This document shows, one piece after another, positions 12,853 through 60,286 of a stretch of DNA of 64,000 bases; position 1 is the stretch's first letter, and the number at the start of each line of letters is the position of its first letter. The notes below the pieces were generated by a model that did no database searches, was not told the DNA's origin, and was given only the letters and a program-made list of their open reading frames with translations. The DNA is taken from contig NZBT01000006.1 of the NCBI GenBank assembly GCA_002688015.1, positions 915 to 64,914 of the forward strand, read 5' to 3'. The position numbers were made by a program, and so were the translations under genes. This DNA comes from Candidatus Pacearchaeota archaeon (lineage in GTDB: Archaea; Nanobdellota; Nanobdellia; Pacearchaeales; GW2011-AR1).

Positions 12853-13877
12853 AAGAAATTAAGATTGAAGTTTATGGAAGAGTGCAGGGAGTCAGATTTA
12901 GAAATGTAATAAAAGGAATTGCTGACTCATTAGATGTTAAAGGATATGTTAGGAATAGAGAGATTGGAGGTGTTGTGATAGTTGCTCAAGGGAGCGAGGG
13001 AAAGTTAAAGAGTTTTTTAGAAGAAATTAATAGAAGTCCTGGGCTTTCTAAAGTTGAGCAAGTTGAGTGGAAATGGCATGAGCAAAGTATAGAATATAAA
13101 GAGTTTAGTATAGAGAAAGATAAAGGTTTTATCGAAGATCAGATTAAGAGCTTTAAGAATTTGGGGAAGACTTTGATTGGGAGGAATTTTGGAATAGTGC
13201 CAGAGCATGTCGTTATTATTCCAGATGGAAATAGGAGATGGGCTAAGGAAAAAGGATTAAGTGGGAGTGAAGGACATATTAAGGCTGCTGCTTTTGAGAA
13301 TTTGATAAGTTTGTTTGATGAGAGCATGAATATGGGAATAAAATATGCTTCTTTGTGGGCTTTTTCTACTGAGAATTGGAAAAGAAATGAAAGAGAAAAG
13401 AAAGTTCTTTTTTCTTTGTTGAGAGGTTTAGTCGATCAGTTAGGAGAATATTTGGAGAAGAATGAAGTTAGGTTTAGACATATTGGAAGGAAAGATAGGC
13501 TTCCTAAAAATTTGATTGAAGATTTACAAAATTTAGAGAAAAAAACTGAAAAGCACAATAACTTCAATGTTTCTTTGCTTTTGGACTATGGGGGGAGAGA
13601 TGAGATTGTTAGAGTGGTTAATAAATTATTAAAACAAGGAAAGAATGAAATAACTGAAGAAGAGATTTGTAAACATTTAGATACATTTGATATTCCTGAT
13701 CCTGATTTGATTATTAGAACTTCAGGGGAGCAGAGAACATCAGGATTACTACCTTGGCAGTCTACATATTCTGAACTTTATTTTGCTGATGTTTATTTTC
13801 CTGATTTTGATGTTAAGGAATTTAAGAAATCAATTGAGGAATTTTCAAAAAGAAAGAGAACTTTTGGCGGGAATTGA
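12849..13877 (+). CDS. uppS: Acylphosphatase domain fused to cis-prenyltransferase (undecaprenyl/dehydrodolichyl diphosphate synthase)
   Basis: The N-terminal ~90 aa carry both acylphosphatase signatures (VYGRVQGVRFR; GYVRNREIGGVVIVAQG). The remainder carries UppS motifs HVVIIPDGNRRWA, FSTENWKR and IRTSGEQRTSGLLPWQSTYSELYF. Confidence 0.9.
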   Translation: MKEIKIEVYGRVQGVRFRNVIKGIADSLDVKGYVRNREIGGVVIVAQGSEGKLKSFLEEINRSPGLSKVEQVEWKWHEQSIEYKEFSIEKDKGFIEDQIKSFKNLGKTLIGRNFGIVPEHVVIIPDGNRRWAKEKGLSGSEGHIKAAAFENLISLFDESMNMGIKYASLWAFSTENWKRNEREKKVLFSLLRGLVDQLGEYLEKNEVRFRHIGRKDRLPKNLIEDLQNLEKKTEKHNNFNVSLLLDYGGRDEIVRVVNKLLKQGKNEITEEEICKHLDTFDIPDPDLIIRTSGEQRTSGLLPWQSTYSELYFADVYFPDFDVKEFKKSIEEFSKRKRTFGGN

Positions 13878-17721: not shown

Positions 17722-17823
17722 AGGGCCTCTTTTCTATTTTTTTTAGGATAGGAAGGTTTTTAATACTTTTTTTGACTGTTACTTTCGACTTACTCTTGCT
17801 GAAGACAGGAGAGGTAAGCGAAT

Positions 17824-17895
17824 GGGCCTATAGTTCAATGGATAGAATGACAGGTTTCGGCCCTGTTGATCGAGGTTCAAGTCCTCGTAGGCCCA
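17824..17895 (+). tRNA. tRNA-Arg (anticodon TCG)
   Basis: Cloverleaf folded by hand. Acceptor GGGCCTA/TAGGCCC; anticodon stem ACAGG/CCTGT with loop TTTCGGC; T arm CGAGG-TTCAAGT-CCTCG. No encoded CCA. Confidence 0.9.
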
Positions 17896-17926
17896 TTACA
17901 AAACTTAATAAATAAGAATAGCAGGA

Positions 17927-58253: not shown

Positions 58254-58313
58254 AATTCTTGGACTTTGATTGGTTGTAAAGCTTTAAAAACAATATCTTT
58301 CTAAAACAATTAT

Positions 58314-58388
58314 GGCTTCGTAGCTCAGTCTGGTCAGAGCACTGGACTCTTAATCCAGGTGTCGCGGGTTCAAATCCCGTCGAGGCCA
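58314..58388 (+). tRNA. tRNA-Lys (anticodon CTT)
   Basis: GGCTTCGTAGCTCAGTCTGGTCAGAGCACTGGACTCTTAATCCAGGTGTCGCGGGTTCAAATCCCGTCGAGGCCA. Anticodon stem CTGGA/TCCAG with loop CTCTTAA. TATA AAGCTTTAAAAAC about 25-30 nt upstream. Confidence 0.9.
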
Positions 58389-58393
58389 TTCCG

Positions 58394-58421
58394 TCTTCCA
58401 CAGCGAGTACTCGAGTAAGAG
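58394..58421 (+). repeat. tRNA-trailer element copy 1 (core ACAGCGAGTACTCGAG, contains the 10-bp palindrome CGAGTACTCG)
   Basis: Core starts 11 nt after the tRNA-Lys 3' end. Its inverted copy at 59783-59810 shares the identical 16-nt core. Confidence 0.8.
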
Positions 58422-58516
58422 AAGATCGGAATAAATATTCTGGAGAAGAGAAGAATTTTTAGGAGAGAAAGGAAATTTGATTTTTGCTGGGAGTTAACGG
58501 TAATGGTTTCCAGGAG

Positions 58517-58789
58517 TTAACGGTAAACACGCCAGGTGTGGTTACATTTAGTACATTTGTAGAATTTTGTTTCTGATTCGTCAGCCGCACGAGTTTGTTT
58601 TGTCCAAAAGTATGCTTTTTTGTTTTTGCATTTTGTACATTTTATTTCTACTATGGGATGAGTTTCTTGAGCTTTTTCGTTTATAACTGCTACTGCATCA
58701 TGCCTTTTTATTTTTTCAGATACAATTACTTTTTTCTTTCCTGGTTTGGGCAGTTTTATACTTCCGTCTCGATTAAATTCTAGGGCCAT
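58517..58789 (-). CDS. tfs: Transcription factor S (TFIIS-like C-terminal zinc ribbon; N-terminal ribbon cysteines absent)
   Basis: CTKCKNKKAYFWTKQTRAADESETKFYKCTKCNHTW carries the TFIIS-type ribbon with the acidic ADE loop. The first 50 aa contain no Cys. Confidence 0.8.
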   Translation of the reverse strand: MALEFNRDGSIKLPKPGKKKVIVSEKIKRHDAVAVINEKAQETHPIVEIKCTKCKNKKAYFWTKQTRAADESETKFYKCTKCNHTWRVYR

Positions 58790-58856
58790 TTTACCTCTTC
58801 ATGATTAGCTTTTTTAAATGTATTGGAAGTATATATACCTTTTCTTGGAGTTAGGA

Positions 58857-59420
58857 TTAGGAACAGAATCCACGTTGGCTGGGAGATCTGAAAGGTTCAA
58901 AGAAGATTAACTTTACCCATCCAACTAGGGGGATTCTTACAGAGGATTTTCCTAAGACATTTGATTCAGAGATAGATTTTTCTATAGGGAGTTGAGCAAG
59001 GTTATTGTCTCCTTTTGTTGCTATTGGATCTAGAGAGATCACACGGTGTATTAGAGGATGTCTTGCATCTGCATTGAAGACCATTATGTCTCCTATTTCT
59101 GGAAATTTATGGTTTGTTAAGAGAATTATGTCTCCTTTGTTTAATCCATTTTTGAAGGGAAATTTGGAGAAATTTTCAGGAGAAATAGATTTCGATTCGT
59201 AATATGCTTCATTTTGTTCAATCCAAGAATCAAAGTTTGTAGAGTGATACATTGAGCATGATTCTATTACTACTAAAGGTAATGGGGAATTGGTTGCAAA
59301 ACCTAGGACAGGGAAGAAAATGATTTTAATAAATATTATAATCAATATTAAGGAGACAAGCCAAGATTGCCATGAATCTTGTTTCAGAAAGTTGTAAATT
59401 TTTTTTAAGTGGTTTTCCAT
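58857..59420 (-). CDS. Signal peptidase I (archaeal/eukaryotic Sec11-like S26)
   Basis: N-terminal TM, catalytic Ser context VIESCSMYHS, GDIMVFNA...HPLIHRVIS (His). Confidence 0.8.
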   Translation of the reverse strand: MENHLKKIYNFLKQDSWQSWLVSLILIIIFIKIIFFPVLGFATNSPLPLVVIESCSMYHSTNFDSWIEQNEAYYESKSISPENFSKFPFKNGLNKGDIILLTNHKFPEIGDIMVFNADARHPLIHRVISLDPIATKGDNNLAQLPIEKSISESNVLGKSSVRIPLVGWVKLIFFEPFRSPSQRGFCS

Positions 59421-59533
59421 TATTGAAAGAGAAGAAATGGGTTTTTAATTGTTAGGATTGAATGATGCAAATGATTTTAAAGTTTAATCCTTTGTTTTTC
59501 GGATGATAAATTGGAGTTTTAGAGTTAAACAAA

Positions 59534-59704
59534 ATGGCTGATCGAAGGATGGGAAAGGTTTTTATTTCATCTGAATCAGGCCATCTTTCTACTACTGAGA
59601 AGACAAGGAGGACAGATTTTGAAGAAGATGAAGAGTTAATTAAAAGGACAAGGAGTGATAAAAGACTTCTGAGACATTATCAAAATTATGGGGTCAAGAA
59701 TTGA
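59534..59704 (+). CDS. Possible small charged protein (56 aa), below the ORF-track cutoff
   Basis: ATG 59534 to TGA 59702-59704: MADRRMGKVFISSESGHLSTTEKTRRTDFEEDEELIKRTRSDKRLLRHYQNYGVKN. It fills an otherwise empty gap. No homology recognised. Confidence 0.3.
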   Translation: MADRRMGKVFISSESGHLSTTEKTRRTDFEEDEELIKRTRSDKRLLRHYQNYGVKN

Positions 59705-59782
59705 GCATGTCTTTTAAAGAGTATTTAACGCGGATGGATGTTTCTTTTTAATCTATTACAATGGAGAATGATTTCTGATTCA

Positions 59783-59810
59783 CTCTTGCTCGAGTACTCG
59801 CTGTGAAGAA
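59783..59810 (-). repeat. tRNA-trailer element copy 2 (core ACAGCGAGTACTCGAG on the minus strand)
   Basis: Plus strand reads CTCTTGCTCGAGTACTCGCTGTGAAGAA. On the minus strand the core starts 12 nt after the tRNA-Gly 3' end. Confidence 0.8.
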
Positions 59811-59816
59811 CGAAGA

Positions 59817-59888
59817 TGCGCCGACCGGGAATCGAACCCGGATCGTAACCTTGGGAAGGTCAAATCATAACCATTAGACCATCAGCGC
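59817..59888 (-). tRNA. tRNA-Gly (anticodon CCC)
   Basis: Reverse complement is GCGCTGATGGTCTAATGGTTATGATTTGACCTTCCCAAGGTTACGATCCGGGTTCGATTCCCGGTCGGCGCA. Anticodon stem TGACC/GGTTA with loop TTCCCAA. The D stem is weak (3 bp). Confidence 0.85.
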
Positions 59889-60286
59889 TTAACATTTCTA
59901 TATAGTACAAGCGCAGAGATTATAATCATTATGGTGTCAATAGCTATGCAAGAAAGACATATTGCTTTCAGGATAAAAAGTTGAACGTATATAAAATAGG
60001 GTGCGAAAATTGTTCCTAATATTGTTAAAGTTACAAATGATTGTTTTAATTTAGGGGATTTTTCTGAAGAGAGGAAGATTAGTAAGTATACTATGAAAGC
60101 AATTCCTCCAAGGAGAGAAACTTTTGCTCCAAAAAGAGTTGAATATTCTGAATGTCTTACAATGGAGCAACCTTGATCAAGAAGACAGATTTCGGACATT
60201 GTTAGATCTTCATAATAGGAATATCCAGATAGTGCTATGTTAATTAGGATTAAAATGAGAATTATTGATTTTATCTTGATTTTCAT
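59882..60286 (-). CDS. VKOR-family (vitamin K epoxide reductase-like) thiol oxidoreductase membrane protein
   Basis: Four hydrophobic helices, a loop Cys pair (CLLDQGC) and CLSC (CxxC) in the last helix. The last 7 nt including the stop overlap the 5' end of tRNA-Gly. Confidence 0.65.
   Translation of the reverse strand: MKIKIKSIILILILINIALSGYSYYEDLTMSEICLLDQGCSIVRHSEYSTLFGAKVSLLGGIAFIVYLLIFLSSEKSPKLKQSFVTLTILGTIFAPYFIYVQLFILKAICLSCIAIDTIMIIISALVLYRNVKR

Follow-up and report, generated by a model that had tools for sequence, protein, structure and literature searches.

What is the short palindromic sequence that follows two convergent tRNA genes in a Candidatus Pacearchaeota genome, and why do its two copies form inverted repeats around a 1.4-kb segment carrying tfs and a signal peptidase gene? 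The window examined here is a 64,000-nt stretch of contig NZBT01000006.1, in which ACAGCGAGTACTCGAG matches only two times, at 58400-58415 on the forward strand and at 59789-59804 on the reverse strand; two such matches arose in 0 of 100 shuffles, even with up to three mismatches allowed. Measured from the discriminator bases at 58388 (+) and 59817 (-), the 16-mer comes after 11 and 12 nt, so the window search and the tRNA calls confirm the spacing given in an earlier note on this DNA. That note took the unit to be a box of 16-28 nt placed 11 nt downstream of the tRNA, and the element to be a pair; the actual unit is a hairpin of 43-45 nt (the module) that begins at +1 of the discriminator, and a genome-wide search gives 7 strong copies, with more than 100 in relatives. 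The features of the window are as follows (H1 and H2 are helices of the module).

58314..58388 (+): tRNA-Lys(CTT), discriminator A at 58388 (ARAGORN; Rfam tRNA 71.8 bits)
58389..58431 (+): module copy 1, short form (model R2 54.7 bits, E=3e-13; hairpin fold -11.8 kcal/mol)
58389-58393 with 58427-58431 (+): H1 of copy 1; an extra A58388-U58432 pair is possible
58394-58398 with 58421-58425 (+): H2 of copy 1, with U at 58426 bulged
58399-58403 and 58417-58420 (+): 5' loop CACAG and 3' loop AAGA of copy 1
58404-58416 (+): apex of copy 1, CGAG-UACUC-GAGU
58400..58415 (+): the 16-mer of the earlier note, with the palindrome CGAGTACTCG, which corresponds to the apex of copy 1
59817..59888 (-): tRNA-Gly(CCC), discriminator A at 59817 (ARAGORN and Rfam)
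59772..59816 (-): module copy 2, short form (model R2 47.6 bits, E=4e-11), with the 16-mer at 59789-59804
59803-59807 with 59779-59783 (-): stem TTCAC/GTGAA of copy 2, its H2 register off by 3 nt
about 17782-17824 (-): divergent module copy 3 (R1 E=0.017; R2 20.2 bits, E=0.006 with filters off)
17823..17896 (+): tRNA-Arg(TCG) (ARAGORN), whose 5' leader would hold the reverse complement of copy 3

The outer helix H1 of copy 2 is damaged, 4 pairs of this copy are non-canonical in the model alignment, and its minimum-energy fold is not the hairpin; its orthologue in a congener (G001) has perfect stems, TTTCTG/CAGAAA and TTCAC/GTGAA. We note that one module copy of G001 is broken by a run of N. 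What had been described as a weaker relative near tRNA-Arg turned out to be a genuine divergent member of the family (E=0.006, unfiltered scan), reading TTCG CTTAC ... AGCAAGA GTAAG T CGAA with the 5' loop and the apex substituted, and the 5' end of its H1 abuts the 5' end of the opposite-strand tRNA-Arg(TCG). The other two tRNAs of the window, tRNA-Asn and tRNA-Ile, have no module according to the covariance-model scan, in agreement with the same note. Both 43-45 nt copies carry the rare loop variant CACAG, which is found in 5 of 54 aligned sequences. Behind copy 1 comes TAAATATTC, where a T5 run first appears about 27 nt on, and behind copy 2 comes TCATTCTCC; an intrinsic terminator (a hairpin and then an immediate oligo-T) is absent after both, and at two other copies an ORF starts directly after the module. 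The 5' end of tRNA-Gly(CCC) runs into the stop codon of a co-directional 134-aa ORF (59882-60286), an overlap implying that the two are probably co-transcribed.

Members of the family share the order H1 (5-6 bp), H2 (5 bp), CCGCAG, a variable centre, (G)AGCAAGA, H2', a bulged U and H1', and the loops CCGCAG and (G)AGCAAGA are near-invariant. Lengths range from 33 to 112 nt (43-45 nt for the window copies), with a centre of 0 to about 70 nt. Most members have a third helix and a loop in place of the palindromic centre, and one (L028) has no centre at all. The proposal that flanking bases extend a stem stands, the stems being the covarying H1 and H2, and the idea that the palindrome is the functional heart of the element is not supported, as the palindrome is confined to the short variant. 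We also rejected the palindrome as a key stem or a dimer site: most of the family is without it, and as its self-pairing never varies, covariation does not speak for it.

The outer helices are well supported by covariation. In a MAFFT alignment made with no model fit, 90.5% of the cells are paired, as compared to at most 55% when the partners are slid, and in the 54-sequence alignment 96.8% are paired, as compared to at most 54% in slid controls. Double-sided changes are seen at all 11 pairs of the outer helices among the 54 sequences, where 152 cells are compensated (42.6 in shuffles), and the inner pairs 13-107, 17-104 and 18-103 covary too. The stem changes are UA<->CG transitions in which pyrimidines stay on the 5' strand, and stem G-U pairs are rare (about 2%). 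The lasting conservation of the core together with compensatory evolution of the stems could equally mean a host function.

Using the covariance model, we found the module in 36 of the 401 genomes of the order, all from one Pacearchaeota-type family and spanning 17 of 154 genera. A single genome may carry as many as 13 copies or more, and the 300 genomes sampled from elsewhere in the phylum gave no positive. Rfam 15 has no match over the module, in its short or its long form (E<=10, E<=1 and E<=0.01), and returns the flanking tRNAs only; a scan of 20 odd contexts likewise returned tRNAs only. The element is linked to tRNAs, conserved in relatives and absent from Rfam, so none of the outcomes that the earlier note named as refuting its reading was seen. 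The module family appears to be a lineage-restricted, undescribed RNA element that is prone to gain and loss.

Six of the 7 strong copies in this 592-kb genome start at +1 of tRNA trailers (Lys-CTT, Gly-CCC, Leu-AAG, His, Gly-GCC and an intron-containing tRNA called as Ser-TGA), and the seventh begins at the 5' splice site of the 37/38 intron of tRNA-Gly(GCC) (ARAGORN i(36,59)), so that about 6 of the 32 tRNAs of the genome carry a module. Across genomes there are 115 distinct instances, whose flanks were assigned to classes by BLAST against 224 predicted tRNAs (the class counts were made on 117 rows, including two duplicate rows of the sense class). The module follows the 3' end of a sense tRNA in 65/115 (57%) and lies inside a sense intron in 6/115 (5%, 5 of them in Gly-GCC); 11/115 adjoin the reverse complement of a tRNA 5' end and about 10 that of a copy of a tRNA tail (together about 18%), and the remaining class, without a tRNA-like flank, holds 23/115 (20%). 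At least 26 isoacceptor types are involved in these 115 instances, and the same tRNA recurs in different genomes (His in 7, Ala-TGC in 5, Lys-CTT in 4, Leu-CAA in 4). Relative to the tRNA, about 71 copies are sense and about 21 antisense; the roughly 18% that are antisense to the adjoining tRNA have intact cores, and tandem and half copies are present as well. Antisense copies with intact cores, and the scarcity of G-U pairs, would also be compatible with selection for a hairpin or cruciform in the DNA.

The junctions at which the module sits are those of tRNA processing. Trailers start with T in 30 of the 32 tRNAs of the genome, and so does the module. The genome encodes RNase Z, EndA and RNase P RNA, so the element does not stand in for an RNase Z or RNase P that the genome is without; relatives that have the element and relatives that do not likewise encode RNase Z and EndA. 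A mimic of an RNase P minihelix substrate, which would make the tRNA 3' end, was also considered and dropped as the main model, because with the frequent A73-U pair at the base of the helix the cut would fall one base too early. For the Gly-GCC intron, a central helix of 4 bp (UUGC/GCAA) can be drawn by eye with H1 as the inner helix; no bulge-helix-bulge (BHB) could be drawn by eye for the trailer copies, and inspection by eye for a BHB-like stem found no complementarity between the 5' leader of tRNA-Lys and the sequence 3' of its module. A position inside the mature tRNA, typical of BHB introns, is taken only by the Gly-GCC intron copy and 5 others, the window copies being outside. As for downstream genes, tRNA-His with its module is followed, about 45 nt on, by a same-strand HisRS-like ORF, and the Ser-TGA copy lies 12 nt ahead of an ATG. 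Ribozymes (HDV-like, hammerhead, hatchet, twister) were compared informally by eye, and their connectivity and conserved boxes do not fit.

The core between the helices resembles a kink-turn. Among ungapped rows of the 54-sequence alignment, G19 (49/49), A20 (49/49), G100 (38/38) and A102 (50/50) are invariant, and A106 and A108 are invariant or nearly so; the neighboring pairs are canonical with few exceptions (17-104: GC 50, AU 1, UA 1, GU 1; 18-103: CG 43, UA 2, UG 1). At the level of sequence, this is the signature of tandem sheared G-A/A-G pairs beside canonical pairs, and the near-invariant positions agree with the definition of K-turns and K-loops (PMC7991803). The short form closes with a 6-nt loop (GUACUC), and the form of 62-65 nt has N-U-C followed by H3, plus an extra unpaired G21; the core looks like a K-loop in the former and a K-turn in the latter. 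The commonest form (66-72 nt) has (G/A)CAGC instead of GAGC and shows no clean G-A tandem at that place. Covariation at the K-turn consists of few events, with two double changes per inner pair, and a rival Watson-Crick pairing of CGA with UCG, which is just as possible, fits 98% of the cells. Because its core is fixed in sequence and K-loop/K-turn-like, the module may serve as a protein-binding platform, for which L7Ae is the obvious candidate. It is similar to the K-turn/K-loop L7Ae sites of archaeal box C/D and H/ACA sRNAs, as described in PMC7991803 and PMC1874613, in that two G-C pairs are followed by G-A/G-A atop a hairpin. The G-A pairs may, as in those sites, close a 3-nt bulge and stem in the form of 62-65 nt and a 6-nt loop in the short form. 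Unlike those sRNAs, it is without C/D boxes (RUGAUGA/CUGA), an ACA box and a variable guide pocket: none of the module copies contains C, D or ACA boxes, and the internal loops are invariant rather than guide-like. An H/ACA-like architecture was rejected on these grounds and on spacing, as the distance to the internal loop breaks the 5-6 nt rule.

Comparison with the congener shows that the presence of modules differs between close relatives. In G001, tRNA-Lys(TTT) has a 69-nt module straight after the discriminator; at the same tRNA in this genome the module is absent, and the homologous flank returns about 13 nt later. In orthologous copies of the two genomes, H1 is kept and the type of the centre is different. 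In relatives, the module and a spacer of 4-20 nt can be bracketed, in either orientation, by duplicates of the last 9-37 nt of the tRNA; flanking repeats occur in 17 of the 117 rows (8-37 nt, mostly copies of tRNA 3' tails). No spare tRNA-tail copies (att-like) or target-site duplications flank the copies in this genome. The family lacks traits of MITEs and insertion sequences, since its arms covary rather than being conserved and there is no target-site duplication of fixed length, and an unsystematic look for recombinases identified no mobility machinery.

The earlier note had also raised the possibility that the two copies are recombination sites allowing the enclosed 1.4 kb to invert, which the gene order argues against. 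The order Ile-Gly(CCC)-signal peptidase-(tfs)-Lys(CTT) is kept in many genomes without the element, and tfs and the signal peptidase gene share the orientation of Gly(CCC) in 61 orthologous loci. In G001 the tfs/signal-peptidase block is collinear with its flanks, and only the tRNA-Lys is flipped, amid extra ORFs. We therefore rejected an invertible segment; the block is ancestral synteny and has not been inverted.

These observations make it moderately probable that the module is a tRNA-end-specific, intron-like structured element that is attached at processing junctions and cut off by RNase Z or EndA. In the window, the 3' trailers of tRNA-Lys(CTT) and tRNA-Gly(CCC) open with the module, which takes up their initial 43-45 nt. 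It would be transcribed together with the tRNA and fold on itself so that the cloverleaf is left undisturbed. RNase Z would then sever it exactly at its 5' edge, and for the intronic copy in tRNA-Gly(GCC) the splicing endonuclease would make the cut. The stems are free to drift as long as pairing is kept, the core is fixed, and the family behaves like an intron-like repeat whose copies are gained, lost and partly swapped among tRNA genes at the DNA level. It does not behave like a housekeeping signal required by every tRNA. The inverted repeats around tfs and the signal peptidase gene are a by-product of two convergent tRNA genes that each have a copy.

Another reading, which we regard as unlikely, sees the module as a cis signal beneficial to the host, i.e. 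a protein-binding hairpin that aids or regulates pre-tRNA 3' maturation or splits the tRNA from co-transcribed RNA such as an mRNA on either side. The exact +1 placement (65/115), the invariant core with stems compensated over 17 genera, the recurrence at His, Ala-TGC, Lys-CTT and Leu-CAA, the proximity of the His module to a HisRS-like ORF and of the Ser-TGA copy to an ATG, and the overlap of tRNA-Gly(CCC) with an upstream stop codon all point to such a signal; against this, a small share of the tRNAs of the genome (about 6/32) carry the module, about 90% of the sampled genomes of the order are without it (RNase Z and EndA being present in relatives that lack it), the tRNAs with a module vary between congeners, and some copies are antisense, in tandem or reduced to a half. 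A small RNA gene in its own right, with the tRNA as a 5' processing handle for RNase Z and the product acting in trans as an RNP, is distinctly improbable given seven or more copies per 0.6-Mb genome with an identical core and differing stems, no segment that varies as a guide would, neither a defined 3' end nor a terminator behind the module, and a centre that is dispensable in L028; the conserved, K-turn-like core would suit it, and the intron copy would be freed by splicing too. Precedents for RNAs bounded by a tRNA exist, including MALAT1/mascRNA, plant tRNA-snoRNA dicistrons, the tRNA-like element that precedes haloarchaeal 5S rRNA, and the HDV-like 'theta' ribozymes directly behind phage tRNAs. 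The module is similar to them in that a structured RNA is fused to a tRNA boundary and a single cut serves both. It differs from the HDV-like ribozymes, which form a nested double pseudoknot, as its outermost 5' strand pairs with its outermost 3' strand, and self-cleavage is not needed because RNase Z is encoded.

Selection might instead act on the DNA, with the module as a recombination site that folds into a hairpin or cruciform (similar to attC or REP, or the att of a miniature integrative cassette), that is aimed at tRNA ends and could invert the window segment; we consider this improbable. Integron attC sites and REP/BIME hairpin repeats keep the fold over the stem sequence and have an extrahelical base, a variable centre and many copies, all of which are seen in the module. 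Both orientations relative to tRNAs, the tRNA-tail duplicates bracketing module and spacer in 17/117 rows, the scarce G-U pairs and the rare CACAG common to both window copies (which fits gene conversion) are consistent with it. Unlike attC and REP/BIME, however, the module is tRNA-end specific and sense-biased (about 71 sense vs about 21 antisense), sits in an archaeal host, and comes with no cassette arrays or integrase that we saw; moreover, its UA<->CG transitions hold pyrimidines on the 5' strand, this genome has no tail duplicates, the duplicates elsewhere vary in length (9-37 nt) in a way that transposase target-site duplications do not, the block is not inverted in G001 or the 61 orthologous loci, and no recombinase was linked to the copies in the unsystematic look. 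tRNA genes do serve as integration targets (PMC4090602), and the second copy of the last 9-37 nt of the tRNA that brackets inserts in relatives is reminiscent of the attL/attR duplications of SSV-type and pNOB8-type integrases; the 'cargo' here is the module plus 4-20 nt, with no integrase, no kb-scale element and, in this genome, no duplicate. The probability that the match arose by chance or through faulty assembly is practically negligible: beyond its shortness and the G001 copy with the N run nothing favours it, and it has to face 0/100 shuffles and more than 100 covarying members in 36 independent assemblies.

A close parallel to the favoured reading, a tRNA-end-specific intron-like module, comes from the tRNA genes of Thermoproteales, in which BHB introns have been transposed (Fujishima et al. 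2010, summarised in PMC4090602); the mechanism was stated to be unknown, and action at the level of DNA is presumed. Both cases have near-identical short structured sequences at different positions in unrelated tRNAs of one lineage, with a patchy distribution and recent gain, and one module member is a genuine component of a 37/38 intron. Compared with the introns as described there, most modules lie outside the mature tRNA at +1, where splicing is not needed, the host belongs to the DPANN, the core is fixed and K-turn-like with only the stems varying, and antisense and tail-bracketed arrangements occur. It is conceivable, if doubtful, that archaeal tRNA introns are gained by means of the module, a hairpin forming a K-turn RNP, or that the module is a living fossil of such gain. 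Installation would then take place at junctions 73/74, 0/1 and 37/38 and in the T-loop of duplicated tails, and trailers and spare tRNA tails would act as a reservoir for the birth and exchange of BHB introns.

Ever since 'intron transposition' was reported in Thermoproteales, the gain and movement of archaeal tRNA introns have awaited an explanation, and the module family may bear on their origin. Its clean covariation, its fixed and possibly protein-binding core, its base-exact junctions for RNase Z, RNase P or the endonuclease, and its filled and empty sites between congeners together make the question testable, by in-vitro cleavage and binding assays and in strain-resolved metagenomes. If the intron-gain reading were true, no earlier candidate for the mechanism of 'intron transposition' would have been as concrete or as open to experiment as the module. 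The family also enlarges the set of structured elements in DPANN genomes by one that is unannotated and can mislead tRNA callers, assemblers and gene callers.

The 16-mer ACAGCGAGTACTCGAG occurs at just two sites in the window, even when up to three mismatches are allowed (two matches in 0 of 100 shuffles), and it lies 11 and 12 nt past the discriminators of two tRNAs because the tRNA ends are placed at 58388 and 59817. ARAGORN and Rfam thus agree with the spacing given in the earlier note. The features concerned are:

58314-58388, +, tRNA-Lys(CTT) (ARAGORN, Rfam)
58400-58415, +, 16-mer (window search)
59789-59804, -, 16-mer (window search)
59817-59888, -, tRNA-Gly(CCC) (ARAGORN, Rfam)
59882-60286, -, 134-aa membrane ORF overlapping the tRNA-Gly(CCC) 5' end
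17782-17824, -, divergent hairpin copy (unfiltered model scan of the window)

Reading every tRNA trailer in the genome (592 kb, 18 contigs), we found that the conserved stretch belongs to a hairpin of 43-45 nt, here called the module, that starts at +1 past the discriminator. The earlier note had described two identical palindrome-containing elements behind tRNAs; the 16-mer is real, but the real unit is this hairpin, with seven strong copies in the genome. Six are at +1, behind tRNA-Lys(CTT), Gly(CCC), Leu(AAG), His, Gly(GCC) and an intron-containing Ser(TGA) (identity as called by ARAGORN), and the seventh starts at the 5' splice site of the 59-nt 37/38 intron of tRNA-Gly(GCC), so that this tRNA bears two modules, one in the trailer and one in the intron. 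The unfiltered model scan adds a single further module in the window, the divergent copy, whose helix base adjoins the 5' end of tRNA-Arg on the opposite strand and which had been noticed before as a weaker relative. Both copies behind the window's tRNAs share a rare loop variant, CACAG (5 of 54 aligned sequences). The one behind tRNA-Gly(CCC) is structurally damaged, while its orthologue in the congeneric genome G001 is intact; about 100 N lie inside that G001 module (locus L110, G001:C20, 2186-2285), reflecting either masking or an assembly gap at the repeat. tRNA-Gly(CCC) shares its first 7 nt (59882-59888) with the final codons and stop of the co-directional ORF, so that the likely transcript order is mRNA, tRNA, module.

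The layout is H1 (5-6 bp), H2 (5 bp), a 5' loop CCGCAG, a variable centre, a 3' loop (G)AGCAAGA, H2', a bulged U and H1'. The centre takes these forms:

absent (L028, a locus in a relative, 33 nt)
UAC (the 45-nt short form of the genome under study)
third helix plus loop (62-65 nt)
longer, two-tier (66-72 nt, commonest)
still larger

The palindrome of the short form is a chance reading of CGAG + UAC + UCGAG. When the seven genomic copies are aligned with MAFFT, the outer helices H1 and H2 are 90.5% paired (slid partners ≤55%). In an alignment of 54 sequences, fitted to the model and hence favouring the structure, they are 96.8% paired (slid controls ≤54%), all 11 outer-helix pairs show double-sided changes, mainly UA<->CG, and compensated cells number 152, as compared to 42.6 in shuffles. 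Inner pairs (alignment columns 13-107, 17-104 and 18-103) covary too; G19, A20, G100 and A102 are constant wherever aligned, and A106 and A108 are invariant. With stems covarying and core bases constant, the core would be read by sequence and the stems by pairing. In 98% of cells the palindromic CGA/UCG pairs could form, but they never vary, so this pairing is neither supported nor refuted. At the sequence level the module resembles a K-loop or K-turn as defined in PMC7991803: two canonical pairs, then G-A on both strands, enclosing either a 6-nt loop or a 3-nt bulge with a stem. The core is therefore a putative site that might bind a K-turn protein such as L7Ae, an assignment that we make tentatively.

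Rfam 15 contains no family covering the short or long forms. A covariance model built from the seven genomic copies matches the module in G001 and one other genus. A second, broader model finds it in 36 of the 401 genomes that were sampled in the order, all from one family (17 of 154 genera), with copies per genome reaching 13 or more; a sample of 300 other genomes from across the phylum gave no match. We sorted 115 distinct instances according to the sequence adjoining the 5' end of H1, with flanks searched by BLAST against 224 predicted tRNAs:

Context of module instances
sense tRNA 3' end: 65/115
inside a sense intron: 6/115 (Gly-GCC in five, at about 37/38; Ile-GAT in one)
reverse complement of a tRNA 5' end: 11/115
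tRNA tail copy in reverse complement, usually the final 13 or 24 nt: about 10/115
no tRNA-like flank: 23/115

Sense and antisense instances stand at 71:21, and at least 26 isoacceptor types have a module at +1.

Copies differ between relatives. G001 has a 69-nt module directly behind tRNA-Lys(TTT); the genome under study is without it, and homologous flanks restart about 13 nt later. There, the same tRNA (C14:47612-47748) has a 60-nt 37/38 intron, absent from G001 (L018), and this is an intron/trailer-module polymorphism within one genus. Orthologous copies in the two genomes share H1 and differ in centre type, which suggests core exchange between copies. In relatives, copies of the final 9-37 nt of the tRNA, in either orientation, bracket a module and its 4-20 nt spacer in 17 of 117 rows, and tandem whole copies and 3'-half copies are also present; no such tail duplicates surround modules in the genome under study. 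At L085, L081, L112, L116, L137 and L150 the duplicates are exact (last 13-37 nt), and in several tail-bracketed cases the spacer gives the T-stem 5' strand, placing the module within the T-loop of an extra tRNA tail. Tandem 3'-half modules (…AAGA-H2'-T-H1') follow some full copies at L011, L012 and L016 (G001, G012); L012 has three 37-nt repeats differing just in the 5-nt H2' segment.

Among published systems, the transposed BHB introns of Thermoproteales come closest (PMC4090602, which describes their transposition mechanism as unknown); unlike these, most modules lie outside the mature tRNA. We consider it very probable that the module acts as RNA: transcription would carry it along as the first part of the trailer, or within an intron; it would fold autonomously, and RNase Z (EndA for the intronic copy) would cut it off at its 5' edge. 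The genome encodes RNase Z, EndA and RNase P RNA, and the two proteins also occur in relatives, both module-bearing and module-free. With less assurance, we also favour viewing the family as an intron-like repeat that is gained and lost at tRNA junctions and not as a signal needed by tRNAs; a host-beneficial processing or separator signal seems unlikely, and a small RNA acting in trans highly improbable.

Intact cores in antisense copies and the scarcity of G-U pairs would suit a DNA hairpin recombination site, but the 71:21 sense bias speaks against it and we think it very unlikely. This includes the earlier idea that the elements invert the enclosed segment: no support for inversion of 58432-59771 was found in orthologous loci or in the G001 comparison. 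Many genomes with module-free trailers share the Ile(GAT)-Gly(CCC)-signal peptidase-(tfs)-Lys(CTT) order, and the region is collinear with G001 apart from tRNA-Lys(CTT) and its module, which are flipped there (window 58313-58432 versus L110 4319-4460), with extra ORFs (124, 49, 122 and 109 aa) flanking the tRNA on either side. The orientation of tRNA-Lys varies among 61 orthologous loci.

Trailers start with T directly past the discriminator in 30 of the 32 predicted tRNAs of the genome, none of which encodes CCA; the module also starts with T. On contig C11 (7857-8030), tRNA-His and its module precede a HisRS-like ORF (MKFEPETVKGFQDFL...) by about 45 nt on the same strand, so that a tRNA and its cognate synthetase, separated by the module, may share a transcript. 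At L056, L071, L078 and L093, in relatives, intron-containing tRNAs receive a CTA ('Pyl') anticodon from ARAGORN or, in genome G411, TCA ('SeC'); either the intron has been misplaced or the tRNAs are of the suppressor type. On contig C16 (13353-13753), the RNase P RNA gene (13478-13753, -) directly adjoins tRNA-Phe (13353-13423, -).
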